A stretch of 64,000 bases of DNA from Sphyrna mokarran (Eukaryota). Below the pieces are notes generated by a model, which made no database searches, had not been told where the DNA came from, and saw only the letters and a program-made list of their open reading frames with translations. The stretch covers positions 91,450,001 through 91,514,000 of the forward strand of contig JAGIQG010000009.1 in NCBI GenBank assembly GCA_024679065.1, written 5' to 3'. Shown piece after piece: positions 6,757 to 51,292 of the stretch (position 1 is the stretch's first letter; each line of letters opens with the position of its first letter). The position numbers and the translations under genes are program-made.

Positions 6757-6800
6757 TCAGTCACTCACTGGAGCTGTTGTGTACGTCCGACTTGGTGAAT
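6757..6800 (-). CDS. Gene A cytoplasmic exon (DSPSRTYTTAPVSD*)
   Basis: Acceptor cttctgcag|, phase 1, YxxA motif, conserved in copy B. An internal gtgagt donor (6763-6768) could splice to a further exon. Confidence 0.7.
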
Positions 6801-9800
6801 CTGCAGAAGTGAAATAAATGTCAGTTAGAATGGGGAATAATCCATTCTCAGAGAGTGAGAACACAACAAGTGTGAGGGAATGGAGATTGTGTGAGAAATA
6901 CTCATTCTCACACTCCCCTCCATCCTTACACTTTATGGAGATCCTGTAGATCTCTTCCATTCCATCCATATTCAGTAGGTGAGGATGTGAGTGTGTGCGG
7001 TGGCTTTAATGATCAATATTATACCTGGTCTGGGCTGATCACACAAAGGAAAATCAGACAAGGAACAAGATGTGTTTATACGTGTGTATCTGTGGATGGG
7101 AATTAAATCAGTTCATTCAACACAGTGTCCTGTATTCCCAGTACTGGAGATTCCCCACATTCACTCTGTCCCCTCAGTTCGACATTCCCCTCTCTCTGAT
7201 TCTTACCTCTCTGCTGTCTTTTCCAAATGATTATTCCGAATATAACAGCCAGTGCTGCGATCACTGATCCGATTATAATTCCAAGATGGAAACGCCCTTC
7301 ACTGTTTCCCGGGATTTCTGAAACACATTTGAATAATATGAGGATTGTTTCTGTTCTCGGATCCATTCCCAGTTCTGTGTTCATTGGGGATAATTTGAAC
7401 TGAAACCACCCCAGTCCAAATGGGATTGGTTGAAGCTTTGCTTTTACACTGGTCCCATGGTGGATAAGGGAGTGTCTATGGATCTGCTCTGGATGGACTT
7501 CCAGAAGGTCATTGATAAAGTTCCACACAAGAGATTCTTGACAATAATCAGAGTGTTTAGAATTGAAGGAAATCTTCGTCGTGGGCTGAAAATTGGTTGG
7601 CAGGAGAGAGACAGGGAATGGAGAGAATGGGATTGTGCTCCCATACAAACACATGCACATATCCAGTACAGTTCCTTACCCCACTGATGGAGCTTGGGCT
7701 CTGCCAGGCTGCTGTGTTCAATTTGACAGGAGTATTGATCCTCATCCGCAGCATTTATTTCAATCTGTTTCTGGATCTGATGGGTTCCATCATGGTTTGG
7801 TCGAATCCCCGAGGATAGTGTTTCAGACATTACCTCTCCATTCCTTAACCAGTTCACCTCGATGTCTACAGGATAAAAGCCAGTAACCAGGCAGGAGAGA
7901 GTGAGCGGCTTGTACTGACTTTTGGGCTCACTTCTGGAGATGAAGACTTCAGGCTGAACTGTAATGGGAAAGGGTGAAAACACAAACAATAAACCCACAC
8001 TGAATGCAATGGGAGAACGGTTTGATAAATCAGTGAAGTTAGAGCAGAACATGGGCTCAAAACTGAAATCAATACTTTTCCGTTCAAAATATTCCTTTCC
8101 AGCTTTTAAATATAACACCAAATGCTGGACAGACTTTTCTTCTAGACTTGTTTTCCAGTGTTTGTTCCAGGATTGATCCGAATCCCATTTCTCTTTAGTC
8201 TTCACTGCCATGTGATTGGATGCGACCCATCTCATTCTGTTGGGCTCTAAACTGATATGGTCTTTTCCATCAAATCCAATTCTCATCGATCTCTTTATGG
8301 AGCCGTCTTCAGCAATCTCAACAATTAGGATCCATTGAAAAACGTGAATTCCTGTCAATAATCAAAAACATTAATCATTTATTCCCAGAAAGCTACAATT
8401 ATCTAATCAATGGGGAAATGAGCAATCATACTCGGATGGTGTCAACGATTTGAGGATTACAAATGTTACATCCTCATTGATTACACTCTAATCATTGAAA
8501 ACAAAGGCAAGGAACCTTTAGGGAGAAAATTAGCCTCAAGTCTTCATCTTTAGAAATCAGCCTAATAGTCAGGACAGTGTCCAGGGATGAGTAGGTTAAA
8601 GGGATTAGTGGGTATAATATGTAGGGATATGACAGTAGGGCCTGCGTGGGATTGTGGTTCGTGCGAACTCGATGGGACGAAAGGCCTCTTTCTGTACTGT
8701 GAGGTTCTATGACTCTAAGCCATTCACTCACTCCTGCCTGTTCACTGAACATATGAAAAGGCAAAGTTTGATCAGGGCTAGTCACCATGGGTTTGTCAGA
8801 GGGAGGTCATGCCTAATAAAATTGATTGAATTTTTTGAGGAAGTCACCAGGTATGTTGAAGACGGTGGTGCAGTTGATATAGCTAATATAGATTTCAGTA
8901 AAGCTTTTGACAAGGTCCAGACGGGAAGCTTATAAAGGAGGCAAATCCACGTGGGATACAGGGTAATTTCATAAACTGAATTTAAAATTGGCTTAGTTAT
9001 TGGCGACAGAGGCGATGACAGAAGGCTGCTTTCATGACTTGAAGCCAGTGTCTACTGGGGTACCACAAGAATCTGTGCTCGGTCGTACATTATTTGTCAT
9101 TTATGTAAATGACGCAGATAACTATTTTGAGAGGATGTGATATTAGTAAGTTTGGGGATGACACAAAGATTGGACGGATGGTTAACAGTGAGGCGGAGTG
9201 CCTTGGGCTACAAGAAGATATAGATGGAACAGCAATTGGGCAGATGGAATTTAACGCTGAAAAGTGTGAGGTGATACATTTCGAAAGGATGTATTTAAAT
9301 GAATGCCATGACACTAGGAAGCTTTGTGAAACAAAGTGGCCTTGGCGTGTTTGTCTCTAAAGGCGAAAAGACATGTTAGCAGGATGGTGAAAAATGCATA
9401 TGGGACACTTGCCTTTATCGATTGAGGCATCGATTTCAAAAACAGGGAAGAGATGTCGGAATTGTACAACTTTGGAAGGATGTGATTGCAGTGGAGAGGG
9501 TGCAGAGGAGATACACCAGGATGCTGCCTGGGATGGAACATTTAAGTTATGAAGAGAGGTTGTGTAGGTTTGGATTATTTTAGCAGCTGGCAACTGGTCA
9601 CTGGGTTGTTGCTGACCAGAAGCTGCATCCATTCGAGATCCAGCTGCTGTCGGATGGACCTGCACTGTTTCTGTATTTAAAACTGACAGGAGTGATTCTA
9701 TTGGGGTTATTTGTGTTGCTGGCATCCCAGCTCTACATAATTCATGTCTTTGTGTTGCTTCTTGTGAAGGGACCTTGCAGCATCCTCCATGTGGCTGTAA

Positions 9801-12800: not shown

Positions 12801-15800
12801 TTGTGGAATAATATTAACTTGAGCTTACATTGCACATTTAATGTGGAATGTCCCAATGAATCTTATCTGATAAAACTGTTAAATGGCCAAAAGCTTGGTC
12901 AAACAGATAGATCTTAAGGAATATCTTAAGTAGGGGAGGAATACGAGGGGGTTTAAGATTGAACTTCTCAACCTTAGGTCGAGCTAACTAAAAACATGGC
13001 ACCAATGAATGAGGATTGGAAGTTAAGGGTGTACAAGAAACTAAAAGTAAATGAATGCAGGTCACTCAGAGGATTGTAGGGCTGCAGAAGGTTACACATT
13101 GGGGTAGCATGGTGCCATAGGAGGATCTGAAAATGAAATTGTGAATTCTAATTTCAAGCCTGAAATCAATGCAGGTCGTCAGTAAGCACAGGCACAAGAG
13201 TAGAATTTATAGTAAATCATACTGTCAGAAACCTCCCAAATCTCTTCATGTACAATCAAGCCATCCAAAACGCTGCTAGCCATATCTTATGTCACATCGT
13301 GTCCCACTCTTCCTGGCATACACTGTCACGCAATATCCTGAATTTAAATCATCATTCTTGTTTTCAAATCCATTCCTGGCTTCATCTCTCCCTGCCTGTA
13401 ATCATCTCCAATCCCACAACATCCCAAGACATCTGCACTCCTTCAGTACTGGCTTCTTGAGCATGTGTATAATTGCTGCACCATTGATAGCGATGCCTTC
13501 AGTTAACCAGGTAATGAGCTCTGGAATTTCTGCACTGTACCTGTTCACTTCTGTTGCTTTCTTCCTTTCAGATACTTCTAGAAATACCTTTCAGACCAAG
13601 CTTTTGATCATTACAGTTAATATCTCTTTCTGTGGTTTAGTGTCTTTTTTTCACAGTGTTCCTGTGAAGCACTATGATGACTTCAGCCATTCTAATGAAG
13701 TTGGCTTCTAGAGTATGAAGCCCTAAGTTAACTTGAGTTTATTTATTTATTGGTCTGCAAAAGAGCTACCAAATGTGTTCTCACAATTGATGCTTTCCAC
13801 ATCTATTGGGCGCTGCAGGGGCCAGCGTATATTACTGACCCTGAAAATCACATGATTATTTGGTGTTTTAAATTTCTTTTTTACTTCGTTTTATTGTTCA
13901 GGCTGTTCCCTCTCCTTTAGGAGGTCTGCTCCTTTTAATTTGTCCCGAAGTTAATTTGAGTTAGTTTATTACGTTAGCACATGTTAAGTTCTAATTGATG
14001 GTTAAATCAGGGAGCCTCGTGCTCCCTATTTAAATCAGGCATGTCAGTCTCTCAGCCTGCATTCAGCAGCGAGCAACTGGAGAGCTGGCTGTGTGCAGAT
14101 CTATGTTGTAAATAAAGTAATTTGTGATGGGACTTCCACTTCCGTGGAGTTATACAAACACTTTGGAAAATTTTGTTACAATGAAGGCTCTCCACAAGTT
14201 GACAGTGTTACTGTTGAATTGTTTTGAAAAGTGGCTAATGTTGTGATGAAAGCAAACAGCTTCATTACAGTATTACTGACAAGAAGCAATTCTTCACCTA
14301 AAGAGGGATCAGTGACTGCAGTGGTCTCCAGATAGAGGTATGGGTTTAGGATACTCACTATCCTTCCTCCATGACGTGGGTACAAGGTACATGAGATAGA
14401 GGCCTCAGATCATTATGCAACAGAAGAATATAACTAACTCCATGTACTGCTTGGAAATCTTGTGGTTGATTGGGAAGAATTGTGCCTCTGAGTCAGAAGC
14501 TCTGGCATCTCCAGAACTTGTTCTCTGCTGGAGAATAGTTCATGATAAGAAATAATCTGTTAATTGTAGAATCCTTACAGTGCAGAAGGAAGCCATCCAG
14601 CCCAATGAAACTGCACCACCAAAAATCTCACCCAGGCCCAATCCTCATCATACCATATATTTACTTTGCCAGTCCCTCCGACACGAAGGTCAATTTAGCA
14701 TGGCCAATGAACCTAACCAGAAACCTCTTGGACTGTGGGAGGAAACCAAAGCACCCAGAAGAAACCCCTGCAGACACAGGGAGAATGCACAGACTCAGTA
14801 CAGACAGTGACCCGAGGCCGGAAATGAACCCAGGTCCCCGGTGCGGTCAGGCAGCACTGCTAACCATTGTGCCACTGTGCCACTCCTAATTTTATATCTA
14901 ATTTTATATTAATGGAGGTGGAGGCATTATCTTAGGGATTCATCTGGGCAAATTGAAAAAGATGTGTTTGCATAATGGAAGAAGTTAAATGAAGATTGGT
15001 GGAGTGTGTTTGAAAGGATTCAATCTCTAATGAAATGTTGAGCAGAGAAAAGACAGGCTGCAGTTCCATTTCTCAACAACTGACTTTCTAGATTATAACA
15101 GCAGGGATCAATCATTCTCATCACAGAACTTGTGGATTTGTAACCTCTGCCCTGCACAATATGCTACTCTGCCATACAAAGTAGAGATTCAAAAGTGTTC
15201 CCTTATCCAGTATAAGGTTAATCACAGGAGTGTCAATGTAAAGATCTCAATCAGAACAGGAAGAAGGAACAGAATCACTCTCCATATCTCCCTGATTCAT
15301 GGACCCACACGCTGTATACCCCAGGGTCACAGTCTGCAGTATAACTGTGGTTAGGTACCTGTCTGACACACATTAAATAGTCAGTGGGAGATTGGACATC
15401 ACTGATCTTACCGGATGTCTGGTTTGTGTTCTTCATTATTGAATTCAGACTCTCCTTTGCCATGTCTGATCGTACATTTACGACAGATGTAAGCTGTTCC
15501 CAATATTCCTCATCAAAAAATTCCACCATGAATTGCTGTCTGGGAATCATCCGACGAACGTGAGTGTCGTGATAATTAACTTGAACTCCCTTCACTATTG
15601 CAACATTAGTAACCTCAGGAAGATCACCAATTCCGGAGATTGCCGTGTATATCACAGTCAGTGAGTCAGTATCTGTAAAATAGTAACAGGTTAATAGATG
15701 TTTCCACAGACTACCAGCTGATCATAGTGAGAGCCATTCAAACTCCAATAATCCACATTCAATCCCAATCTTAGAATCCTGTCTGATATTAGCAAAGGGG

Positions 15801-30800: not shown

Positions 30801-32761
30801 TTTCTTCCCACATTTTGTCCTTGTTCTCTCCTTCTCAGACTCCTTAATTGATTCTCATCCCCCTGGCATTATTAGTTTAAACCCTCTCCAACTGCTTCAG
30901 CAAACACACCCTCTCGGACATCAGTCCCAGTCCTGCCCAGGTGTAATCTGTCCAATTTATACAGGTCCCACCTCCCCCAGAACCGGTCCCAATGCCCCAG
31001 GAATCTGAAACCCTTTCCCTGACACCATCTCTTCAACCATGTATTTATCCAATATCTCCTCTCATTTCTAATCTGACTAACACATGGCCCCGCTAATAAT
31101 CCTGAAATCACTACCTTTAAGATCCGATTTCTTAACTTTCTTCCTAGTTCCCTGAATCGTGCTTTTAGGACCTCATCCCTTTTTATAACCTTTGTCATTT
31201 GTACCAACATGTGCTACAATCACTGACTGTTTGCCCTTCCCCTTCACAATGTCCTGCAGCCACTCTGAGACATCCTTGACCCTAACACCACGGAGGCAAC
31301 ATATCGTCCTGGAGTCTCATTTGCATCCAAAGAAATGCCTGTCTATTGCCCTTACAATTGAATCCCCTATAACTATTGCACTGGTACACTTTTTACCCCT
31401 CCCCTCTGCAACAGAACAAACCTTTGTGCAACGAGTTTAGCTGCTGCTGCTTTCCCTAGAGAGGTCATTCCCCTCAACAGTATCCAAAGCGGTATGCCTA
31501 TTTTACAGGGGAATGGTCACTGGAGATTCCTGCACTACCTGCCTATCTCTCTTGCTCTGTCTGATGGTCACCCATTCTTTTCCTGCCTGTGGAGTCTGAG
31601 CCTGCAGTGTGACCAACTCTCTATACCTGCTATACCTGACTCGTGGATGCTTCACAGTGTCTCCATCTGCCGCTCCAGTTCTGAAACTCAAGCTTCCAGG
31701 AGCTGTAGCTGGAGACACTTCCCCTACACATACTGACCCAGGAGACTGGAACTGTCCCCAGCCTGTCACATGGAGCAAAAAGAACTAACCACTGCTTGGA
31801 GCTCTCCTATCATGTCTTACCCCTTTCAATTAAACTTTTGAAAGATCTTTTGTTTCCGATATATACAATTTTCTTTCTTTCCTGCTCCTTGTTACTACCG
31901 AGTATAATCCTTTCGAACTATAAACCACAGAAATTATACAGAAACACTATAATAGTGTACACCAACTACAATGCCAAAAGCAAAAAGAAACAATATTTAT
32001 CAATCAGCACTCTCGCTTGTAGCCTCTGCTGCCTGTTTCACCTAACTCCCTGTGTCCATCCAACTCCCAAAGCACTCCTCACAGTCAGACAGTACTCTGT
32101 ACAGGAAAAATATAACAGTGAGCCAGCCAGGAGCTGAACCTGGGATGTTCTGATCTTGTTCCCTGCTGTTAATATTTTATCTTTTCCTCTTTGGTACTAC
32201 AAAGTATTTACTAAATCTCCTGTGTTATCTACAGTCTGCTTGTCAATCTTTAATGGTTTTATATCTCACAGAATCACTCATTTACTGTTAATATATTTCT
32301 ATAAACTTTTACTATTAGTCTTTGTATCACCTGCACATTTTCACTGTGTCCTTTATCTCAATTTAATCTTTCTGTTCCTCCATTCTTCCCTCTGTTTCTG
32401 GACATTTCCACTTTAATTGCTCCAAGCTTCTCTGATCAGGTGTTTTGAACATACAAACATGGAGCAGGAGTAGGCCATTCGGCCCCTCGAGTCTGCTCTG
32501 TCATTCTGTGGCTGATGTGATTGTGATCTGAACTCTACTTTCCTCTCAATCTCTCTGTACACTTTCACTCCCTTGTCAGTCATGATGTTATCTAACAGAT
32601 ACACAATAATGTCTGAGTGAACATCACCCATTTCAAACTCTCACCAAAAGATTCAAATTCACCCCAGAGAGAGAGAGAGTGAGAATAGGAGAGTGAATTC
32701 TGTACTTACCGGGAGAGACCCAGGAAAAACACAGGGAGATGGAGAAAAGGATCAGCAACAT
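6757..32761 (-). CDS. Non-classical MHC class I heavy chain, gene A (6 exons, ~340 aa, apparently intact)
   Basis: Exons 32761-32710 (52 nt), 15672-15412 (261), 8351-8076 (276), 7958-7680 (279), 7317-7207 (111) and 6800-6757 (44) sum to 1023 nt, all phase 1 with GT-AG boundaries and no internal stop. Domain order is leader-a1-a2-a3(IgC1)-TM-cyt. Which leader is used is inferred. Confidence 0.88.
7207..7317 (-). CDS. Gene A connecting peptide/transmembrane exon
   Basis: EIPGNSEGRFHLGIIIGSVIAALAVIFGIIIWKRQQR: hydrophobic span then basic stop-transfer; tttcag| and G|gtaaga. Confidence 0.9.
7680..7958 (-). CDS. Gene A alpha3 (Ig C1) exon
   Basis: LSCLVTGFYPVDIEVNWLRNG...PNHDGTHQ...YSCQIEHSSL; canonical C1-set Cys-Trp-Cys; ttacag| and G|gtaagg boundaries. 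Confidence 0.95.
8076..8351 (-). CDS. Gene A alpha2 exon
   Basis: tgacag|GA...AAAA|gtattg; GIHVFQW...GFDGKDHISLE...TKEKWD...YLKAGKEYFERK; 92 codons; no Cys. Confidence 0.92.
8725..10300 (+). mobile_element. Decayed CR1 ORF2 fragments in gene A intron 2, interrupted at ~9565-9890
   Basis: [51 protein letters not shown]. Confidence 0.88.
13802..14156 (+). mobile_element. Possible solo LTR
   Basis: ~350 bp with a TATA-like tatttaaa, AATAAA near the 3' end and terminal ...ttataCA; the 5' TG and target-site duplication are not clear. Confidence 0.3.
14565..14880 (-). mobile_element. tRNA-derived SINE (HE1-like)
   Basis: Head gtggcacagtggcacaatggttagcagtgctgcc...gggttcatttccggcctcgggtcactgtctgt on the minus strand. 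Confidence 0.75.
15412..15672 (-). CDS. Gene A alpha1 exon
   Basis: ttttacag|AT...TCCG|gtaaga; DTDSLTVIYTAISG...PEV...YHDT...IPRQQFM...EEYWEQ...NTNQTS, with the conserved end-of-alpha1 N-glycan sequon; 87 codons. Confidence 0.92.
16940..19500 (-). mobile_element. CR1 LINE with ORF1 (zinc-finger/esterase-like) and internally deleted ORF2
   Basis: ORF1 CFRCHMWE..C..YLELQHL and VACLPGAGVQGV..IILYIGEKDVG; APE fragments (CFNTRSV, VAVTETWL); ORF 16960-17247 fuses KENPKAFYSY directly to the RT C-terminus. Confidence 0.88.
20745..22735 (-). mobile_element. CR1 LINE ORF2, decayed
   Basis: QHGFTKGRSCLTNLVEFFE, SKFTDDTKMGG, DWKTTNVMPLFKKG; tail ttcttatgttctta at ~20745. Confidence 0.9.
22736..23290 (-). 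promoter_or_regulatory. Orphan, decayed copy of the class I promoter/upstream module (leader deleted)
   Basis: 22771-23290 aligns to 33126-33630. X-like CCTGGTAACTAG is kept, the Y box is replaced by an AATTA tract, and 22736-22760 matches intron-1 sequence 32378-32402. Confidence 0.65.
23590..25136 (+). mobile_element. CR1 LINE ORF2, decayed, truncated by a Penelope insertion
   Basis: IKENPKDFHTY, KSPGSEGIYPRILRE, TSGVPQGSVL; paralogous start at ~51915. Confidence 0.88.
25137..27275 (+). mobile_element. Penelope-like retroelement with inverted terminal (pLTR) arrangement
   Basis: IVNLSDYTLQPDEIEVLSRGLNFCPT and RT motifs PIVSGNG...LITMDISVLYTNIP; 25137-25260 is the reverse complement of ~25650-25779; minus-strand GIY-YIG C-terminal-like fragment VLQGGLHNTQQRR. 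Confidence 0.88.
27700..28900 (-). mobile_element. PIF/Harbinger transposase relic (HARBI1-like), copy A
   Basis: FINRKGFHFLNVQIVLDHRLNIMYVCVQHPGSV matches the Harbinger DDE motif NRKGxHSxNVQ...PGS; frameshifted. Confidence 0.85.
29395..29720 (+). mobile_element. tRNA-derived SINE (SacSINE1/DeuSINE-like); paralog at 58385-58710
   Basis: Pol III A box tggtg(a/t)agtgg and B box g(g/a)ttcga(a/t)tccc, followed by the core ...catctggctcactaatgtcctttagg... Confidence 0.7.
30860..31800 (-). mobile_element. CR1 ORF1 (esterase-like) fragment
   Basis: FRELGRKLRNRILKVVISGLL...WLKRWCQGKGFRFLGHW...LYKLDRLHL. Confidence 0.85.
32710..32761 (-). CDS. Class I signal-peptide exon, copy 1 (MLLILFSISLCFSWVSP/G)
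   Basis: ATG at 32761, 17 hydrophobic codons plus 1 nt, donor G|gtaagt; phase 1 matches the alpha1 exon. Confidence 0.85.
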
Positions 32762-32869
32762 TCTGGGAATCCACTGTCCCAATTCCAATCAGTGACTGGG
32801 AATTAAACACTTGAAGCAACTTGATAAACTCCAGCTTTCAGCTTTCAACTCCAGCTTTCAACTCCAGAT

Positions 32870-33050
32870 AAACTCCAGCCCTGCCTGCGGCAGTTGTGAA
32901 TGCGCCAAGTTTGGTGCCGTTTAAGAGGTTAGTTGATACGTATATGGAAGAGAAGGGAATGGTTTAGTTTGGAGGGTCATTGCTTTTTATATTGGTCGGC
33001 GCAACATCGAAGGCCGAAGGGCCTGTTCTGTGCTGTAATGTTCTATGTAA
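32870..33050 (+). mobile_element. Young CR1 3' end inserted between the promoter module and leader copy 1
   Basis: Matches 50595-50777 (ccctgcctgc...gttctatg tail). Confidence 0.85.
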
Positions 33051-34067: not shown

Positions 34068-34119
34068 CGGGAGAGACCCAGCAAAAACACAGGGAGATGG
34101 AGAAAAGGATCAGCAACAT
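34068..34119 (-). CDS. Class I signal-peptide exon, copy 2 (MLLILFSISLCFCWVSP/G)
   Basis: Near-identical 52-nt exon with donor G|gtaagt; flanking intron 33980-34067 matches 32622-32709. Confidence 0.8.
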
Positions 34120-38629: not shown

Positions 38630-38908
38630 CCAACTGATGGAGCTTGGGCTCTGCCAGGCTGCTGTGTTCAATTTGACAGGAATATTGATCCTCATCCCCA
38701 GCATTTATTTCATTCTCTTTCTGGATCTGATGGCTCCCATCGTGGTTTGGTCGAACTCCCGAGGATAGTGTCTCAGACATTACCTCTCCATTCCTTAACC
38801 AGTTCACCTCAATGTCTACAGGATAAAAGCCAGTAACCAGGCAGGAGAGAGTGAGGGGCTTGTACTGACTATTGGGCTCACTTCTGGAGATGAAGACTTC
38901 AGGCTGAA
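38630..38908 (-). CDS. Gene B alpha3 exon
   Basis: 85/93 aa identical to gene A alpha3; intact GT-AG. Confidence 0.9.
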
Positions 38909-39025: not shown

Positions 39026-39301
39026 CTTTCCGTTCAAAATATTCCTTTCCAGCTTTCAAATATTCCTTTAAATGATGAACAAATACTTCCTGCAGACATT
39101 TTTCCCAGTAATTATTCCAGGATTGGTCAGAATCCCATTTCTCTTTAGTCTTCACTGCGAAGTGATTAGATGCGACCCATCTCATTCTGTCTGGCTCTAA
39201 ACTAATATAGTCCTTCCCATCAAATCCAAACCGCATCGATCTCTTAATGGAGCCGTCTTCAGTGACCTCGACAGATCAAATCCACTGAAAAATGTGAATT
39301 C
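39026..39301 (-). pseudogene. Gene B alpha2 exon with premature stop
   Basis: GIHIFQWI*SVEVTEDG...GFDGKDYISLE...TKEKWD...YLKAGKEYFERK. Confidence 0.88.
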
Positions 39302-39446: not shown

Positions 39447-42400
39447 GTCAGTGCTGGGAGATGGACTGAGTTCAGTGTCCCAGGGGTCAGTGCTGGGGAC
39501 TAAATTCAGTGTCCGAGGGATCAGTGCTGGGGGACTGAGCTCAGTGTCCCAGGGGTCAGTGCTGGGGGACTGAGCTCAGTGTCCCAGGGGTCAGTGCTGG
39601 GGGACTGAGTTCAGTGTCCCAGGGGTCAGTGCTGGGGACTAAGTTCAGTGTCCGAGGGATCAGTGCTGGGGGACTGAGCTCAGTGTCCCAGGGGTCAGTG
39701 CTGGGGGACTGAGCTCAGTGTCCCAGGGGTCAGTGCTGGGGGACTGAGCTCAGTGTCCCAGGGGTCAGTGCTGGGGGACTGAGTTCAGTGTCCCAGGGGT
39801 CAGTGCTGGGGGACTGAGATCAGTGTCCCAGGGGTCAGTGCTGGGGGACTGAGCTCAGTGTCCCAGGCGGCAGTGCTGGGAGATGGACTGAGTCCTGTGT
39901 CCATGGGATCAGTGCTGGGTGACTGAGTTCAGTGTCACAGGGGTCACTGCTGGCGGACTGAGCTCAGTGTCCCAGGGGTCAGTGCTGGGGGACTGAGTTT
40001 AGTGTCCCAGGGGTCAGTGCTGGGGGACTGAGTTCAGTGGCCCAGGGGTCAGTGCTGGGGGACTGAGTTCAGTGTCCCAGGGGTCAGTGCTGGGGGACTG
40101 AGGTTCAGTGTCCCAGGGGTCAGTGCTGGGGGACTGAGTTCAGTGTCCCAGGGGTCAGTGCTGGGGGACTGAGTAAGTGCCCCAGGGGTCAGTGCTGGGG
40201 GACTGAGTTCAGTGTCCCAGGGGTCAGTGCTGGGGGACTGAGTCAGTGTCCCAGGGTCAGTGCTGACCTCAGTCCCCAGGGCAGTGCGGGGACTGAGTTC
40301 AGTGTTCAGGGGTCAGTGCTGGGGGACTGAGTTCAGTGTCCCAAGGGTCAGTGCTGGGGGACTGAGTCAGTGTCCCAGGGTTCATGGGGTGATTGAGTTC
40401 AGTGTCGCAGGGGTCACTGCTGGCGGACTGAGCTCAGTGTCCCAGGGGTCAGTGCCGGAAGACGGAGCTCAGTGTCGCAGCGGTCGGTGCTGGGGCACTG
40501 AGTTTAGTGTCCCAGGGGTCAGTGCTGGGGGACTGAGTTCAGTGGCCCAGGGGTCAGTGCTGGGGGACTGAGTTCAGTGTCCCAGGGGTCAGTGCTGGGG
40601 GACTGAGTTCAGTGTCCCAGGGGTCAGTGCTGGGGGACTGAGTTCAGTGTCCCAGGGGTCAGTGCTGGGGGACTGAGTTCAGTGTCCCAGGGGTCAGTGC
40701 TGGGGGACTGAGCTCAGTGTCCCAGGGGTCAGTGCTGGGGGACTGAGTTCAGTGTCCCAGGGGTCAGTGCTGGGGGACTGATTTCAGTGTCCCAGGGGTC
40801 AGTGCTGGGGGACTGAGTTCAGTGTCCCAGGGGTCAGTGCTGGGGGACTGAGATCAGTGCCCCAGAGGTCAGTGCAGGTGGACTGAGTTCAGTGTTCCAG
40901 GGGTCAGTGCTGGGGGACTGAGTTCATTGTCCCAGGGGTCAGTGCTGGGAGATGGACTGAGTTCAGTGTCCCCGTGATCAGTGCTGGGTGACTGAGTTCA
41001 GTGTCCCAGGGGTCACTGCTGGCGGACTGAGCTCAGTGTCCCAGGGGTCAGTGCTGGGGGAGTGGGGTTCAATGTCTCAGGGGTCAGTGCTGGGGGACTG
41101 AGTTCAGTGTCCCAGGGGTCAGTGCTGGGGGACTAGGCTCTGTGTCCCAGGGTTCAGTGCTGGGGGACTGACTTCAGTGTCTCAGGGGTCAGTGCTGGGG
41201 GACTGAGCTCAGTGTCCCGGGGTCAGTGCTTGGGGATTGAGTTCAGTGTCCCAGGGGGTCAGTGCTGGGGGACTGAGCTCAGTGTCCAGTGATCAGTACT
41301 GTGCGACTGAGGTCAGTGTCCCAGGCGTCAGTGCTGGGGGACTGAGTTCAGTATCCCAGGGGTCAGTGCTGTGGGACTGAGTTCAGTGTCCCGGGGTCAG
41401 TGATGGGGGACTGAGTTCAGTGTCCCAGGCGTCAGTGCTGGGAGATGGACTGAGTTCAGTGTCCCCGGGATCAGTGCTGGGTGACTGAGTTCAGTGTCCC
41501 AGGGGTCACTGCTGGCGGACTGAGCTCAGTGTCCTAGGGGTCAGTGCCGGAGGACGGAGCTCAGTGTTGCAGCGGTCGGTGCTGGGGGACTGGGTTTAGT
41601 GTCCCAGGGGTCAGTGCTGGGGGACTGAGCTAAGTGACCCAGGGGTCAGTGCTGGGGGACTGAGCTCAGTGTCCCAGGGGTCAGTGCTGGTGGACTGATT
41701 TCAGTGTCCAAGGGGTCAGTGCTGGGGGACTGAGTTCAGTGTCCCAGTGATCAGTGCTGTGCTACTTCAGGTCAGTGTCCCAGGGGTCAGTGATGGGGGA
41801 CTGAGCTCAGCATCCCAGGGGTCAGTGCTCGGGGACTGAGCTCAGTGACTGAGGGGTCAGTGCTGGGGGACTGACTTCAGTGTCTCAGGAATCAGTGCTG
41901 GGGGACTGAGTTCAGTGTCCCAGGGGTCAGTGCTGGGGAACTCAATTCAGTTTTCCAGGAGTCAGTGCAGGGTGATTAAGTTTAAGTGTCCCAAGGGTCA
42001 GTGCTGGGGACTAATTTCAGTGTCCCAGGGATCATTGGTGGGGAAACGGAGCTCAGTGTCCCAGGGGTCAGTGCTGGGGACTGAGTTCAGTGTCCCAGGG
42101 GTCAGTGCTGGGGGACTAAGTTCAAGTGTCCCAGGGGTCAGTGCTGGGGGACTAAGTTCAGTGTCCCAGGGGTCAGTGCTGGGGGACTGAGCTCAGTGTC
42201 CCATCGGTCAGCGCTGAGGGTTCTGAGCTCAGTGCCCCCGGGGTCAGAGCTGGGGGGACTGAGCTCAGTGTCACAGGGGTCAGTGCTGGGAGATGGACTG
42301 AGCTCAGTGTCCCAGGGGTCAGTGCTGGGGGACTGTGTTTAGTGACCCAGGGGTCAGTGCTGGGGGACTGAGTTGTGTCCCAGGAGTTAGTGCTGGGTGA

Positions 42401-45400
42401 CTGAGCTCAGTGACCCAGGCTTCAGTGATGGGGGACTGAGTTCAGTGTCCCAGCGGTCAGTGCTGGGGAACTGAGTTTAGTGTCCCAGGGGTCAGTGTTG
42501 AGAGACTGAGCTCAGCGTCCCAGGGGTCAGTGTTGAGGGTCTGAGCTCATTGTCCCACGGGTCTGTGGTGGGGGACTGAGTTCAGTGTCCCAGGGGTCAG
42601 CGCTGGGGAAATGAGTTCAGTGCCCCAGGGGTCAGTGCTGGGGGACTGAGTTCGGTGGCCCAGGGGTCAGTGCTGGGGGATTGAGTTCAGTGGCCCAGAG
42701 GTCAGTGCTGGCAGACTGAGTTCAGTGTCCCAGGGGTCAGTGGTGGGGGACTGAGTTCAGTGTCCCAGGGGTCAGTGCTGGCGGACTGAGTTCAGTGTCC
42801 CAGGGGTCAGTGCTGTCAGACTCAGTTCAGTGACCCAGGGGTCAGTGCTGGGGGACTGAGCTCAGTGTCCCAGGGGTCAGTGATGGGGGACTGAGCTCAG
42901 TGTCCCAGGGGTCAGTGCTGGGGGACTGAGTTCAGTGTCCCAGGGGTCAGTGCTGGGGGACTGAGATCAGTGTCCCAGGGGTCAGTGCTGGGGGACTGAG
43001 TTCAGTGTCCCAGTGGGTCAGTGCTGGGGGACTGAGTTCAGTGTCCCACTGGTCAGTGCTGGGCGACTGAGCTCAGTGACCCAGGGGTCAGTGCTGGGGG
43101 ACAGAGCTCAGTGTCCCAGGGGTCAGTGCTGGGGGACTGAGTTCAGTGACCCAGGGGTCAGTGCTGGGGGACGGAGTTCAGTGTCCCAGGGGTCAGTGCT
43201 GGGGGACTGATTTCAGTGTCCCAGGTGGCAGTGCTGTGGGACTGAGTTCAGTGTCCCAGGGGTCAGTGATGGGGGACTGAGTTCAGTGTCCCAGGCGTCA
43301 GTGCTGGGAGATGGACTGAGTTCAGTGTCCCCGGGATCAGTGCTGGGTGACTGAGTTCAGTGTCCCAGGGGTCACTGCTGGCGGACTGAGCTCAGTGTCC
43401 CAGGGGTCAGTGCTGGGGGAGTGGGGTTCAATGTCTCAGGGGTCAGTGCTGGCAGACTGAGTTCAGTGTCCCAGGGGTCAGTGCTGGGGGACTGAGCTCA
43501 GAGACCCAGGGGTCAGTGCTGGCGGGCTCAGTTCAGTGACCCAGGGGTCAGTGCTGGGGGACTGAGTTCAGTGTCCCAGGCGTCAGTGCTGGGGGAGTGG
43601 GGTTCAATGTCTCAGGGGTCAGTGCTGGCAGACTGAGTTCAGTGTCCCAGGGGTCAGTGATGGGGGACTTGGCTCTGTGTCCCAGGGGTCAGTGCTGGCG
43701 GGCACAGTTCAGTGTCCCAGGGGTCAGTGCTGGGGGACTGAGCTCATTGTCCCAGGGTTCAGTGCTGGGAGACTGAGTTCAGTGTCCCAGGGGGTCAGTG
43801 CTGGGGGACTGAGTTCAGTGTCCCAGGGGTCAGTGATGGGGGACTGAGCTCAGTGTCCCAGGATTCAGTGCGGTGTGGACTGAGTTCAGTGTCCCAGGGG
43901 GTCAGCACTGGGGTACTGAGTTCAGTGTCCCAGTGATCAGTGCTGTGCTACTGAGGTCAGTGTCCCAGGGGTCAGTGATGGGGACTGAGCTCAGCGTCCC
44001 AGGGGTCAGTGCTGGGGGACTGAGCTCAGTGACTGAGGGTTCAGTGCTGGGGGACTGACTTCAGTGTCGCAGGAATCAGTGCTGTGGAACTCAGTTCAGT
44101 GTTCCAGGAGTCAGTGCAGGGGACTAAGTTTAAGTGTCCCAAGGGTCAGTGCTGGGGACTAATTTCAGTGTCCCAGGGATCATTGGTGGGGAAACTGAGC
44201 CAGTGTCCCAGGGGTCAGTGCTGGGGGACTAAGTTCAAGTGTCCCAGGGGTCAGTGCTGGGGGACTAAGTTCAAGTGTCCCAGGGGTCAGTGCTGGGGGA
44301 CTAAGTTCAGTGTCCCCGGGGTCAGTGCTGGGGGACTGAGCTCAGTGTCCCATGGGTCAGTGCTGAGACTTCTGAGCTCAGTGCCCCCGGGGTCAGTGCT
44401 GGGGGTACTGAGCTTAGTGTCCCAGGGGTCAGTGCTGGGGGATTGAGTTGTGTCCCAGGAGTTAGTGCTGGGTGACTGAGCTCAGTGACCCAGGGGTCAG
44501 TGCTGGGGGACTAAGTTCAAGTGTCCCAGGGGTCAGCGCTGGGGGACTATGTTCAGTGTCCCAGGGGTCAGTGCTGGGGGACTGAGCTCAGTGTCCCATG
44601 GGTCAGTGCTGAGACTTCTGAGCTCAGTGCCCCTGGGGTCAGTGGTGGGGGGACTGATCTCAGTGTCCCAGGGGTCAGTGCTGGGGGACTGAGTTGTGTC
44701 CCAGGAGTTAGTGCTGGGTGACTGAGCTCAGTAACCCAGGGGTCAGTGATGGGGGACTGAGTTCAGTGTCCCAGCCGTCAGTGCTGGGGGACTACGTTCA
44801 AGTGTCCCAGGGGTCAGTGCTTGGGGCCTAAGTTCAGTGTCCCAGGGGTCAGTGCTGGGCGACTGAGCTCAGTGACCCAGGGGTCAGTGCTGGGGGACTA
44901 AGTTCAAGTGTCCCAGGGGTCAGTGCTGGGGGACTAAGTTCAAGTGTCCCAGGGGTCAGCGCTGGGGGACTAAGTTCAGTGTCCCAGGGGTCAGTGCTGG
45001 GGGACTGAGCTCAGTGTCCCATGGGTCAGTGCTGAGACTTCTGAGCTCAGTGCCCCTGGGGTCAGTGGTGGGGGGACTGATCTCAGTGTCCCAGGGGTCA
45101 GTGCTGGGGGACTGTGTTTTGTGACCCAGGGGTCAGTGCTAGGGGACTGAGTTGTGTCCCAGGAGTTGTGCTGGGTGACTGAGCTCAGTGACCCAGGGCA
45201 GCGATGGGGGACTGAGTTCAGTGTCCCAGCGGTCAGTGCTGGGGAACTGAGTTTAGTGTCCCAGGGCTCAGTGTTGGGAGACTGAGTTCGGTGGCCCGGG
45301 TCAGTTTGGGGATGAGTTCTGGCCCAGAGGTCGTGCGGCGACTGAGTTCAGTGTCCCAGGGGTCAGTGGTGGGGGACTGAGTTCAGTGTCCCAGGGGTCA

Positions 45401-48400
45401 GTGGTGGTGACGGAGTTCAGTGTCCCAGGGGTCAGTGCTGGGGGACTGATTTTAGTGTCCCAGGGGTCAGTGATGGGCGACTAGGCTCAGTGTCCCAGGG
45501 GTCAGTGCTGGGGGACTGAGCTCAGTGACCCAGGGGTCAGTGCTGGGGGACTGAGTTCTGAGTCCCAGGGGTCAGTGCTAGGGACTGAGTTCAGTGTCCC
45601 AGGGTTCAGTGCTGGTGGACTGATTTCAGTCCAGGGTCAGTGCTGGGGGACTGGTCGTGTCCAGGGTCCTGCAGGGGATGAGTTCAGTGTCCAAGGTGTC
45701 AGTACTAGGGGACTGAGCTCAGTGTCCCAGGGGTCAGTGCTGGGGGACTGAGTTCTGTGTCCCAGGGGTCAGTGCTGGGGGACTGAGTTCAGTGTCCAGT
45801 GGTCAGTGCTGGGGGCTGAGTTCTTGTCCCAGGGGTCAGCTGAGGGACTGAGTTCAGTGTCCCAGGGGTCAGTGCTGTGGAACTCAGTTCAGTGCGGAGT
45901 CAGTGCGGGACTATTCAGTGTCCCAGGTCAGTGCTGGGGACTATAGTGTCCCAGGGGTCAGTGCTGGGGGACTGAGTTCAGTGTCCCAGGGGTCAGTGCT
46001 GGGGGACTGAGTTCAGTGTCCCAGGCGTCAGTGCTGGGGGACTGAGTACAGTGTCCCAGGGGTCAGTGCTGGAAGATTGAGTTCAGTGTCCCAGGTGTCA
46101 GTGCTGGGAGGTGGACTGAGTTCAGTGTCCCAGGGGTCAGTGCTGGGGGACTCAGTTCAGTGTCCCAGGGGTCAGTGCTGAGGGACTGAGTTCAGTGTCC
46201 CAGGGGTCAGTGCTGTGGAACTGAGTTCAGTGTCCCAGGAGTCAGTGAGGGGACTAAGTTCAAGTGTCCCAGAGGTCAGTGCTGGGGGACTGAGGTCAGT
46301 GTCCCAGGGGTCAGTGCTGGGGGACTGAGCTCAGTGTCCCAGAGGTCAGTGCTGGGGGACTGAGTTCAGTGTCCCAGTGGTCTGTGCTGTGGGACTGAGT
46401 TCAGTGTCCCAGGGGTCAGTGCTGGGGAACTAAGCTCAGTGTCCCAGGGGTCAGTGCTGCGGGACTGAGTTCAGTGTCCCAGTGGTCAGTGCTGGGGGAC
46501 TGAGTTCAGTGTCACAGGGGTCAGTGCTGGGGGACTGAGTTCAGTGGCCCAGGGGTCAGCGCTGCAGAACTGAGCTCAGTGTCTCAGTGGTCAGTGCTGG
46601 CGGACTGAGTTCAGTCTCCGAGGGGTCAGTGCTGGGGGACTGAGTTCAGTGTCCAAGGAGTCAGAGCTGAGGGACTGAGTTCAGTGTCCCAGGGGTCAGT
46701 GCTGGGGAACTGAGTTCAGTGTTCCAGGAGTCACTGCTTTGGAACTCAGTTCAGTGTTCCAGGAGTCAGTGCAGGGGACTAAGTTCAAGTGTCCCAGGGT
46801 TCAGTGGTGGGGGAACTGAGTTCAGTGTCCCAGGGGTCAGTGCTGGGGGACTGAGTTCAAGTGTCCCAGGGGCTCAGTGTTGGGGTACTGAGTTCATTGT
46901 CCCAGGGGTCAGTGCTGGGGGACTGAGTTCAGTGTCGCAGGGGTCAGTGATGGGGGACTGAGCTCAGTGACCCAGGGGTGAGTGCTGGGGGACGGAGTTC
47001 AGTGTCCCAGGCGGCAGTGCTGTGGGACAGAGTTCAGTGGCCCAGGGGTCTGTGCTGGGAGATGAACTGAGTTCAGTGTCCCCATGATCAGTGCTGGGTG
47101 ACTGAGATCAGTGTCCCAGGGGTCAGTGCGGGGGGACTGAGCTCAACGTCCCAGGGGTCAGTGCTGAGGGAGTGGGGTTCAATGTCTCAGGGGTCAGTGC
47201 TGGCAGACTGAGTTCAGTGTCCCAGGGGTCAGTGCTTGTGGACTGAGGTCAGTATCCCAGGGGTCAGTGATGGGGGACTAAGCTCAGTGTCCCAGGGGTC
47301 AGTACTGGGGGACTGAGGTCAGTGACACAGGGGTCAGTGCTGGCGGGCTTAGTTCAGTGTCCCAGGGGTGAGTGCTGGGGGACTGAGCTCAGTGTCCCAG
47401 TGGTCAGTGCTGGGGGAGTGGGGTTCAATGTCTCAGGGGTCAGTGCTGGCAGACTGAGTTCAGTGTCCTAGGGGTCAGTGCTGGGGGACTGGGCTCTGTG
47501 TCCCAGGGTTCAGTGCTGGGGGACTGAGCTCAGTGTCCCAGGGGTCACTGATGGGGGACTGAGCTCAGTGTCCCAGGGTTCAGTGCTGGGGGACTGAGTT
47601 CAGTGTCCCAGGGGGTCAGTGATGGGGGACTGAGTTCAGTGTCCCAGGGGTCAGTGCTGGGGGACTCAGTTCTGTGTCCCAGGGGTCAGTGATGGGGGAC
47701 TGAGCTCAGTGTCCCAGGGTTCAGTGCGGGTGGACTGAGTTCAGTTTCCCAGGGGGTCAGCACTACTGAGTTCAGTTTCCCAGGGGGTCAGCACTGGGGT
47801 ACTGAGTTCAGTGTCCCAGTGGTCAGTGCTGGGGGACTGCGTTCAGTGTCCCAGGGGTCAGTGATGGGGGATTGATCTCAGTGTCCCAGGGGTCAGTGCT
47901 GCGGGACTGAGTTCAGTGTCCCAGTGGTCAGTGCTGGTGGACTGAGTTCAGTGTCCCAGGGGTCAGTGATGGGGAACTAAGCTCAGTGTCCCAGGGGTCA
48001 GTGCTGGGGCACTGAGCTCAATGAACCAGGGGTCAGTGCTGGGTGACTGAGTTCAGTGTCCCAGGGGTCAGTGCTGGGGGACTGAGCTCAGTGAACCAGA
48101 GGTCAGTGTTGGGGGACTGATTCCTGTATCCCAGGGGTCAGTGCTGGGGGACTGAGTTCAGTGGCCCAGGGCTCAGTGCTGGGGGTCTGATATCAGGGCC
48201 CAAGGGTCAGTGGGGGGACTGAGCTAAGTGACCCAGGGTCAGTGCTGGGGGACTGAGTTCAGTGTCCCAGGGGTCAGTGCTGGGGGACTGATTCAGTGTC
48301 CCAGGGGTCAGTGCTGGGGGACTGAGCTCAGTGACCCAGGGGTCAGTGCTGGGGGACTGAGTTCAGTGTCCCAGGGGTCAGTGCTGGGGGACTGAGTTCA

Positions 48401-50988
48401 GTGCCCAGGGGTCAGCGCTGCAGAACTGAGCTCAATGTTCAGTGGTCAGTGCTGGGGACTGAGTTCAGTGTCCAAGGAACAGAGCTGAGGGACTGAGTTC
48501 AGTGTCCCAGGGGTCAGTGCTGGGGAACTGAGTTCAGTGGCCCAGGAGTCACTGCTTTGGAACTCAGTTCAGTGTTCCAGGAGTCAGTGCAGGGGACTAA
48601 GTTCAAGTGTCCCAGGGTTCAGTGGTGGGGGAACTGAGTTCAGTGTCCCAGGGGTCAGTGCTGGGGGACTGAGTTCAAGTGTCCCAGGGGCTCAGTGTTG
48701 GGGTACTGAGTTCATTGTCCCAGGGGTCAGTGCTGGGGGACTGAGTTCAGTGTCGCAGGGGTCAGTGATGGGGGACTGAGCTCAGTGACCCAGGGGTGAG
48801 TGCTGGGGGACGGAGTTCAGTGTCCCAGGCGGCAGTGCTGTGGGACAGAGTTCAGTGGCCCAGGGGTCTGTGCTGGGAGATGAACTGAGTTCAGTGTCCC
48901 CATGATCAGTGCTGGGTGACTGAGATCAGTGTCCCAGGGGTCAGTGCGGGGGGACTGAGCTCAACGTCCCAGGGGTCAGTGCTGAGGGAGTGGGGTTCAA
49001 TGTCTCAGGGGTCAGTGCTGGCAGACTGAGTTCAGTGTCCCAGGGGTCAGTGCTTGTGGACTGAGGTCAGTATCCCAGGGGTCAGTGATGGGGGACTAAG
49101 CTCAGTGTCCCAGGGGTCAGTACTGGGGGACTGAGGTCAGTGACACAGGGGTCAGTGCTGGCGGGCTTAGTTCAGTGTCCCAGGGGTGAGTGCTGGGGGA
49201 CTGAGCTCAGTGTCCCAGGGGTCAGTGCTAGGGGACTGATTTCATTGTCCCAGGGGTCAGTGCTGGCGGACTCAGTTCAGTGTCCCAGGGGTCAGTGATG
49301 GGGGACTAAGCTCAGTGTCCCAGGGGTCAGTGCTGGGGGACTGAGTTCAGTGTCCCAATGGTCAGTGCTCGGGGACTCAGTTCTGTGTCCCAGGGGTCAG
49401 TGCTGGTGGACTGAGTTCAGTGTCCCAGGGGTCAGTGCTGGGGGACGAGTTCAGTGTCCCAGGGGTCAGTGCTGGGGTATGAGTTCAGTGTCCCAGAGGT
49501 CAGTGCGGGGACTGAGTTCAGTGGCCCAGGGGCAGTGCTGGGTACTACGTTCAGTGTCCCAGGGGACAGTGATGGGGGAACTGAGCTCAGTGTCCCAGAG
49601 GTCAGTGCTGGGGACTGAGTTCAGTGGCCCAGGGGTCAGTGCTGGGGACTGAGTTCTGTGTCCCAGGGGTCAGTGCTGGGGGACTGAGTTCAGTGTCCCA
49701 GGGGTCAGTGCTGGGGGACTGAGCTCAGTGACTGAGGGGTCTGTGCTGGGGGACTGAGTTCAGTGTCCCAGGGGTCAGTGCTGGGGGACTGATTTCAGTG
49801 TCCCAGGGGTCAGTGCTGGGGTACTGAGTTCAGTGTCCCAGAGGTCAGTGCTGGGGACTGAGTTCAGTGGCCCAGGGGTCAGTGCTGGGTACTACGTTCA
49901 GTGTCCCAGGGGACAGTGATGGGGGAACTGAGCTCAGTGTCCCAGAGGTCAGTGCTGGGGACTGAGTTCAGTGGCCCAGGGGTCAGTGCTGGGGGACTGA
50001 GTTCTGTGTCCCAGGGGTCAGTGCTGGGGGACTGATTCAGTGTCCCAGGGGTCAGTGCTGGGGGACTGAGCTCAGTGACTGAGGGGTCTGTGCTGGGGGA
50101 CTGAGTTCAGTGTCCCAGGGGTCAGTGCTGGGGGACTGATTTCAGTGTCCCAGGGGACAGTGATGGGGGAACTGAGCTCAGTGTCCCAGAGGTCAGTGCT
50201 GGGAACTGAGCACAGTGTCCCAGTGGTCAGTGCTGGCGGACTCAATTCAGTGTCCCAGGGGTCAGTTCCGGGGACTGTGTTCAGTGCCCCAGGGGTCAGT
50301 GCTTGGGGACTGAGTTCAGTGTCCCACGGGTTAGTGCTGGGGGACTGAGTTTAGCGTCCCCTAGAGAGGTTGAAGGATTTGAGGTTGTTTTCGTTAGAAA
50401 GGAGGCGGCTAAGAGGGGATCTTATTGAAGCATATAAGATGATTAGAGGTTTAGATAGGGTGGACAGTGATAGCCTTTTTCCTAGGATGGAGAAAGCTAG
50501 CACGAGGGGACACAGCTTTAAATTAAGGGGTATGAGTTATAGGACGGATATCAGAGGTAGGTTCTTTACTCAAAGAGTGATTAGGGAGTGGAATGCCCTG
50601 CCTGCAGCTGTTGTAGATGCGCCAAGTTTGGTGGCGTTTAAGAGGTTAGTTGATAAGTATATGGAAGAGAAGGGAACGGTTTAGTTTGGAGGGGCATTGC
50701 TTTTTATTTTGGTCGGCACAACATCGAAGGCCGAAGGGCCTGTTCTGTGCTGTATTGTTCTATGTTCTATGTTCTATGTCCCAGGGGTCAGTGCTGGGGA
50801 CTGAGTTCAGTGTCTCAGGGGTCAGTGCTGGGGGACTGAGTTCAGTGTCCCAGGGGTCAGTGCTTCGGGACTGAGTTCAGTTTCTCAGGGGTCAGTACTG
50901 TGGGACTGAGTTCAGTGTCCCAGGGGTCAGTGCTTCGGGACTGAGTTCAATTTCCCAGGGGTCGGTGCTGGGGGACTGAGTTCAGTGT
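39447..50988. repeat. 35-bp G-rich minisatellite array, ~310-320 units, consensus TCAGTGTCCCAGGGGTCAGTGCTGGGGGACTGAGY
   Basis: Directly visible tandem array; interrupted once by a CR1 3' fragment at 50361-50777. Confidence 0.98.
50361..50777 (+). mobile_element. Young CR1 3' fragment inserted in the minisatellite
   Basis: Open ORF2 C-terminus (LFSLERRRLRGDLIEAYK...WNALP), (TTCTATG)n tail, flanking GTCCC on both sides. Confidence 0.92.
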
Positions 50989-51031: not shown

Positions 51032-51292
51032 CAGATGTCTGGTTTGTGATCTTCAGCACTGTATTCAGATTCTCCTTTGCCATGTCTGAGTGTGAGTTCA
51101 CCAGTCCTGTGATGTAATCCCAGAATTCAGGGGTGATATTTTCAGCCATGAACCTCTGCCTGGGAATGCAGCGAAGGATATTACTGTCATGATATCGTGC
51201 TTGGACACTATTGAGCATTCCAATGCTTGTAACCTCAGGAAAATCTTCTATCCCAGACACAGCAGTGTATATCACCGTGAGTGTGTTAGTGT
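51032..51292 (-). CDS. Gene B alpha1 exon (open frame, splice donor mutated)
   Basis: DTNTLTVIYTAVSGIEDFPEV...YHDS...IPRQRFM...PEFWDY...KITNQTS; 49/87 aa identical to gene A by manual alignment. Confidence 0.88.

Follow-up and report, generated by a model that had tools for sequence, protein, structure and literature searches.

Gene A is an MHC class I gene in a 64,000-nucleotide stretch of the Sphyrna mokarran genome, referred to here as the window. It is an intact member of an old, multicopy, non-classical class I family in which no alpha2 disulfide is possible; the full reading, in which the family is likely UEA and its products would be beta2m-bound and present non-standard ligands, has a probability that we put at roughly 70%. 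The alpha2 disulfide cannot form because no examined family member keeps C101. For the window itself the result is modest, and gene A is very probably one more member of a lineage already described; the remaining interest is biochemical and lies in a class I groove predicted from sequence to be free of the disulfide.

Gene A, its splicing and its missing cysteines

The exons of gene A follow the layout of an MHC class I heavy chain, with alpha1, alpha2, alpha3 (C1-set), transmembrane and cytoplasmic exons in one frame; this frame runs for 340 codons before the first stop, and all internal exon ends are AG/GT. A second gene in the window, gene B, is a pseudogene with a stop in alpha2 and a broken alpha1 donor. 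The features of the two genes are as follows.

34068..34119, minus strand: second copy of the leader exon, lying upstream of gene A (homologue search)
32710..32761, minus strand: gene A leader exon, the nearest of two copies (tblastn to homologue signal peptides, GT donor)
15412..15672, minus strand: gene A alpha1 exon, with V7, Y59, N84 and the N86 glycosylation sequon (AG/GT ends; run X1 contig 6)
8076..8351, minus strand: gene A alpha2 exon (Pfam, alignment; both junctions seen in run X1)
7959..8075, minus strand: gene A intron 3, 117 bp, in frame and stop-free (skipped in contigs of runs X1, X2 and X5)
7680..7958, minus strand: gene A alpha3 exon, C1-set Ig domain with both cysteines (Pfam PF07654, E 7.8e-18)
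7207..7317, minus strand: gene A transmembrane exon (homologue search; family-type junctions in run contigs)
6757..6800, minus strand: gene A cytoplasmic exon, which carries a YTTA motif and is given as far as the first in-frame stop; another exon may follow downstream (homologue search)
51032..51292, minus strand: gene B (pseudogene) alpha1 exon, with GA where the donor should read GT (homologue search, splice-site check)
39026..39301, minus strand: gene B alpha2 exon, with V101, F164, C159 and an in-frame TGA at position 99 (39276-39278) (translation, alignment)
38630..38908, minus strand: gene B alpha3 exon with both cysteines (translation)

Gene A is an intact gene that appears spliced in a public-run contig. 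Contig 6 of run X1 (596 bases) matches 15411-15673 and 8076-8350 without a single difference, and in it alpha1 runs into alpha2 at the predicted ends; the alpha2-alpha3 junction was likewise seen in this run. As no paralog comes closer than 89% identity in alpha2, the contig represents gene A or an identical allele. Similarly joined contigs from runs X2, X4 and X5 carry 9-29 differences per piece and represent relatives of gene A. A spliced gene A transcript, which the earlier note had proposed to seek in RNA-seq data, has a counterpart in a run that was guessed, not recorded, as RNA, and the evidence for splicing consists of exon-joined contigs only, with neither level nor tissue attached.

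The alpha2 exon encodes 0 cysteines. Translation of positions 8077-8349 on the minus strand gives a 91-residue MHC_I alpha2 domain (Pfam PF00129, E 1.4e-14) that contains both peptides FQWILIVEI and LEEKSVQHL; the C101 column reads V (codon GTT, 8320-8322) and the C164 column reads S (codon TCT, 8131-8133). Numbering is HLA-style; which positions count as anchor or groove sites is taken from general background knowledge. The column register was set by aligning a close relative, P0013, to chicken class I chains, whose two cysteines face the columns in question, and also by class I genes of the same genome that keep both cysteines. The translation and the alignment register bear out the earlier observation that gene A alpha2 lacks any cysteine and carries V101 and S164, and the absence is confirmed as real; assembly error was rejected as its source. 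Apart from the alpha3 pair, the mature protein has no cysteine, and alpha2 keeps Q96, D119, G120, D122, T143, K146, W147 and Y171.

For gene B, the earlier claim that both cysteines are missing held at the two columns themselves (V101, F164); its alpha2 is nevertheless not free of cysteine, given C159, and the copy is broken by the TGA at position 99 and the GA donor. The argument that loss in two paralogs marks a lineage trait is weak on this account, gene B being a pseudogene, and its conclusion holds on the family-wide loss of C101 described below. Intron 2 of gene B is filled by about 310 copies of a 35-bp minisatellite in an 11-kb array (39463-50360 and 50777-50988).

The leader region (window 32640-32900) recurs, at 81-100% identity and often paired, at about 28 places on contig C1548. 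One copy on the plus strand (G000:C1548:91745568-91745765) lies immediately upstream of a single-copy, Cys-keeping neighbour gene, and the signal peptide of gene A's family is also found in P0122 and P0127, relatives of that neighbour. This suggests that promoter and leader have been shared or converted between gene A's family and the neighbour's lineage.

Copies, conservation and age of the family

The genome of S. mokarran holds at least 19 family alpha2 copies (53-100% identity) on contig C1548, 18 of them within 90.98-91.73 Mb and the other at 86.66 Mb. C101 is absent from all 19, and C164 is present in one of the 18 that cover its column. The copy at 86.66 Mb (L016/L062) stands about 4.3 Mb outside the cluster, nearer to classical-type genes; its intron 3 is longer, and it has a close orthologue in Mustelus. 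Two database searches returned 44 and 55 matches to the family, of which 43 and 55, respectively, carry shark names, the remaining one being unnamed; 8 further family proteins that were looked up are also from sharks. No ray or chimaera occurs among the named matches, which places the family in sharks and, the search being word-based, is weak evidence of absence. The family was found in Heptranchias, Pristiophorus, Heterodontus, carpet sharks, Carcharodon, Cetorhinus, Scyliorhinus and Mustelus, which we take to represent six orders.

Among the database proteins, C101 occurs in 0 of 69 covered alpha2 domains (70 domains from 68 proteins), with V in 64, and C164 is kept in 7 of 68 covered domains. 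The claim that both cysteines are lost thus stands at the family level for C101, which is always gone, and only in part for C164. As background, non-family domains with both columns covered were taken from the best 150 library matches of a profile search and are near relatives by score; 158 of these 163 keep both cysteines, 5 lose C164 only and 0 lose C101. The statement that the pair is nearly invariant in class I agrees with this count, and the loss in the family goes beyond chance, since 158 of 163 non-family domains keep both residues and none is without C101. The 13 other class I genes of the same genome that entered the tree keep both cysteines as well; a broken class I copy at 85.95 Mb has C101 only.

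The two columns differ in constraint. Across 64 family rows, position 101 is V in 59, I in 3 and A in 2 (entropy 0.47 bits); position 164 is F in 23 and L in 18 (2.47 bits) and ranks as the 14th most variable of 179. The V codons are two changes away from Cys and the codons for F, S, Y, W and G at 164 one change away, in line with C101 having been lost first and position 164 having varied later. A replacement alpha1-alpha2 disulfide was looked for in the 64 rows, and no conserved cysteine pair was found. A lone C45 is present in alpha1 of 22 of the 64 rows (including gene B, L052, L054, L057, L059-L061 and database proteins; not gene A), and this unpaired residue is a candidate, on sequence grounds, for forming heavy-chain dimers.

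Among 8 open paralogs of the same genome, dN/dS is 0.55 in alpha1, 0.31 in alpha2 and 0.29 in alpha3, and all three domains are under purifying selection. Alpha3 is homogenised among the paralogs L001-L013 (94% amino-acid identity, dS 0.09), unlike alpha1 (58%, dS 0.52) and alpha2 (79%, dS 0.39), a sign of partial gene conversion. The 117-bp alpha2-alpha3 intron (7959-8075 in gene A; loci L001-L014 and L016) is in frame and stop-free in 12 of the 15 paralogs checked and 96% identical among 8 of them; its retention would add 39 residues with one cysteine, and its conservation probably stems from homogenisation along with alpha3.

A tree of alpha1+alpha2 came from a quick IQ-TREE run, with midpoint root and long outgroup branches flagged. 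From the genome of S. mokarran it took in 15 of the 19 family copies, excluding those that were broken or incomplete, together with 13 class I genes from outside the family; a further 49 proteins came from databases. A branch with SH-aLRT 99 and a length of 0.75 separates all 64 family rows from the 13 Cys-keeping genes; within the family there are several cross-order subclades, and the base is unresolved. Gene A and a sister copy group with genes from Cetorhinus, Carcharodon, Chiloscyllium, Hemiscyllium and Pristiophorus (SH-aLRT 96). The alternative raised in the earlier note, that gene A represents a new sublineage, was rejected on this nesting with orthologues from three other orders: the subgroup is old and shared across orders. 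Judged from these sequences, the family is old, apparently predating the split of the main shark orders.

Lineage of the family and what the assignment means

UEA genes have lost invariant anchor residues, possess a groove more hydrophobic than that of UAA and fall into three sublineages; UCA is not known outside dogfish sharks. The UEA abstract of Almeida et al. 2021 reportedly places UEA across sharks and absent from rays and chimaeras. On contig C1548, a BET domain gene at 90.78 Mb and an exon at about 90.85 Mb, which by its likeness we take to be beta2m-like, are followed by gene A's family at 90.98-91.73 Mb, by single Cys-keeping class I genes at 91.75, 92.06, 92.16 and 93.32 Mb and then, at 93.68 Mb, by a ZIP gene; location is the sole basis for calling the BET gene brd2 and the ZIP gene slc39a7. 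A second multicopy, Cys-keeping class I cluster lies at 95.58-95.84 Mb. As far as section 9 of the published account goes, multicopy UEA and single-copy UDA form one class Ib cluster between brd2/beta2m and hsd17b8/rxrb/slc39a7 (PMC10751288); in the same source UBA is a separate multicopy cluster, and the supplement labels the genes MHC-Ib only. UBA is described, in the relevant parts of two sources, as derived from UAA (PMC10751288; PMC12562908). Gene A's family agrees with UEA in position and copy number, with 18 of its 19 copies between the brd2/beta2m-like and slc39a7-like genes; the copy at 86.66 Mb speaks against it. Because synteny, copy number and range match, the family is very likely UEA; the suggestion that gene A may belong to a described multigene shark lineage has thereby gained its most likely name.

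Other assignments were tried and rejected. UBA does not fit, as the cluster that suits it, at 95.58-95.84 Mb, is another clade, and 19 copies are at odds with the single or low copy number of UDA, UFA and UGA. Classical class Ia (UAA) is contradicted by the lack of an alpha2 cysteine in gene A and by its 5 of 9 classical anchor residues; 3-7 of these nine, which are the usual peptide-terminus anchors, are kept across the family, with a mode of 5.

It is distinctly improbable that the family is an undescribed shark lineage, or UCA, instead of UEA. Some room for it is left by the composition of the comparison: the phylogeny proposed in the earlier note recovers the family as one clade among sequences that include no named UEA or UCA members, and no Squalus protein stands among the family matches of the two database searches. 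Against it, the family occurs in six orders other than the dogfish sharks to which UCA is confined, and the genome has exactly two expanded clusters, at the two published positions. In the pertinent part of a further source, only UBA and UEA are listed as expanded shark families, UDA, UFA and UGA being single or low copy (PMC12562908). The reading that cysteine loss is the decay of dying copies has next to no weight left; gene B and at least 5 other copies do have alpha2, alpha3 or a splice site broken by stops or frameshifts, but V101 is conserved across six orders, alpha2 dN/dS is 0.31, and gene A is intact and apparently spliced, which effectively refutes it. The absence of C101 throughout one clade, in six orders and at this dN/dS upholds the view that the loss is a lineage trait and not decay, in a family that is most likely UEA.

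In the portions of the literature that the search covered, no statement on UEA cysteines was found either way, which is not proof that the loss is unpublished. The authors of Almeida et al. 2021 are said to have aligned the UEA domains and, because they did so, probably noted the cysteines. We consider it rather unlikely, though conceivable, that the family-wide C101 loss is not in print and that no other large, ancient and expressed class I family combines an otherwise complete groove and beta2m interface with the lack of an alpha2 disulfide. If this were true, the family would be a natural experiment in class I folding and loading without the tapasin/TAPBPR disulfide check, and position 164, once a structural staple, would now be a variable site that tunes the A-pocket end. 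A family without the alpha2 disulfide since before the split of the shark orders would also offer dozens of natural variants for the study of groove stabilisation and loading.

Predicted folding, ligands and relation to known class I systems

An AlphaFold2 model of P0013, a relative with 70% identity in alpha2, has the normal platform of class I molecules, with pLDDT 86-96 over residues 21-190, and best matches chicken class I and MR1, as well as 6LUP. The model depicts a relative and not gene A, its alpha3 is of lower confidence and its whole-chain rmsd to solved structures is 4.6-6.0 A; AlphaFold confidence, moreover, shows fold and says nothing about stability. The structure prediction suggested in the earlier note has accordingly yielded a normal platform for a relative. 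According to the sections of these papers that concern the bond, the C101-C164 disulfide sits at the A pocket and mutating it in HLA-A2 abolishes TAPBPR binding (PMC6926029), and the class I alpha2 disulfide forms late in folding (PMC9359109).

We propose that C101 was replaced by V once, on the family stem, freeing position 164, and that hydrophobic packing of the residue at 164, usually F or L, on V101 would take the place of the bond, as suggested by the conserved position 101 and the mostly bulky 164. The small S164 of gene A fits this packing less well than the usual F or L. The protein would fold as a beta2m-bound, glycosylated surface molecule; beta2m binding and glycosylation are indicated because none of the 64 family rows departs from Q96, G120, D122, W147 or the N86 sequon, and D119 is present in 63. 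The beta2m-contact residues are Q96, D119, G120 and D122, all four present in gene A and in 63-64 of the 64 rows. The A-pocket end of the groove would be remodelled, with Y7 lost and the 159-170 helix face highly variable (159, 163, 164, 167 and 170 are among the most variable family sites), and the F-pocket end (T143, K146, W147) kept; from this combination the ligands may be non-standard, such as peptides that are modified or carry an N-terminal extension, or else amphipathic ligands with their anchor at the C-terminal end. Loading would then take place outside the normal disulfide-dependent chaperone check, and paralogs may differ in ligand.

A UEA family without any ligand, forming a closed or empty platform read directly by a receptor in the manner of MICA-like stress ligands, is unlikely. 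It would account for the absence of Y7 in all 64 rows and the retention of R84 in only 6, and several of the most variable positions (57, 65, 69, 158, 162, 166, 170 and 173) fall outside the usual list of groove-facing sites. No ligand-driven diversification was detected among the 8 open paralogs either, groove codons showing no excess of replacements (dN/dS 0.39 vs 0.43 elsewhere), a result that also counts against the reading preferred here. Against this, T143 (56/64), K146 (59/64), W147 (64/64) and Y/F123 (61/64) are kept, the helices are without deletions, and variability is higher at groove positions than elsewhere (1.48 vs 1.07 bits, with a p of 0.003 that is overstated because the rows are related). 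CD1-like lipid presentation is very improbable. The mean groove hydropathy of the family, 0.45 (gene A, 0.42), does exceed that of two classical-type genes with 9/9 anchors (-0.34 and 0.08), but it is similar to that of the UBA-position genes (0.11-0.46) and far below that of the disulfide-keeping neighbours at 92.06 and 92.16 Mb (1.40 and 1.06); the shark genes described as CD1-like are UFA and UGA, which are single or low copy (PMC12562908). The flexible or non-peptide-binding groove suggested in the earlier note stays a conjecture, for a family that retains T143, K146 and W147 and whose groove is of no more than moderate hydrophobicity. A beta2m-bound molecule presenting non-standard ligands is the reading that we prefer.

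Among known systems, UEA stands closest: both UEA and gene A's family are found in sharks only (for the latter, in the searches made here) and may have in common the lack of several of the nine anchor residues that gene A's family shows, and no difference between the two has emerged. By the position given in section 9 of the published account, both are also multicopy, MHC-linked, adjoin brd2 and beta2m and lie in the cluster of single-copy class Ib genes (PMC10751288).

The classical UAA molecule (PDB 6LUP) shares with gene A the exon layout, the alpha3 disulfide, the beta2m-contact residues, T143/K146/W147, the N86 sequon and the fold; its comparison with the model of P0013 gives a TM of 0.75 to target at 34% identity. 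In the same genome, the genes at 89.63 Mb (the closest to 6LUP) and 85.79 Mb keep C101, C164 and 9/9 anchors, whereas gene A has neither cysteine and 5/9.

The single-copy class Ib neighbours, which by inference are UDA, UFA and UGA, belong to the same cluster and are likewise non-classical, and the leader region of the 91.75 Mb gene is 92% identical to that of the family; unlike the family, they are single copy, keep C101-C164 and fall outside the clade. The neighbours at 92.06 Mb, whose best match is MR1, and 92.16 Mb have grooves much more hydrophobic than those of gene A's family. The latter (L036:7440-7712; G000:C1548:92.156 Mb) is a class I gene that occurs as a single copy; its groove is very hydrophobic, its alpha2 is close to PDB 9CH4 chain A (E 2e-34), an entry labelled only 'Ig-like domain-containing protein', and it is likely one of the CD1-like shark genes. 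The teleost S and P lineages are described, in the section of the source that treats them, as keeping the alpha2 cysteine pair (PMC4364491). The UBA-position genes at 95.58-95.84 Mb resemble gene A's family in being multicopy, non-classical and on the same contig, and differ from it in grouping with classical genes, in keeping both cysteines in 7 of 7 tree rows and in forming a separate cluster.
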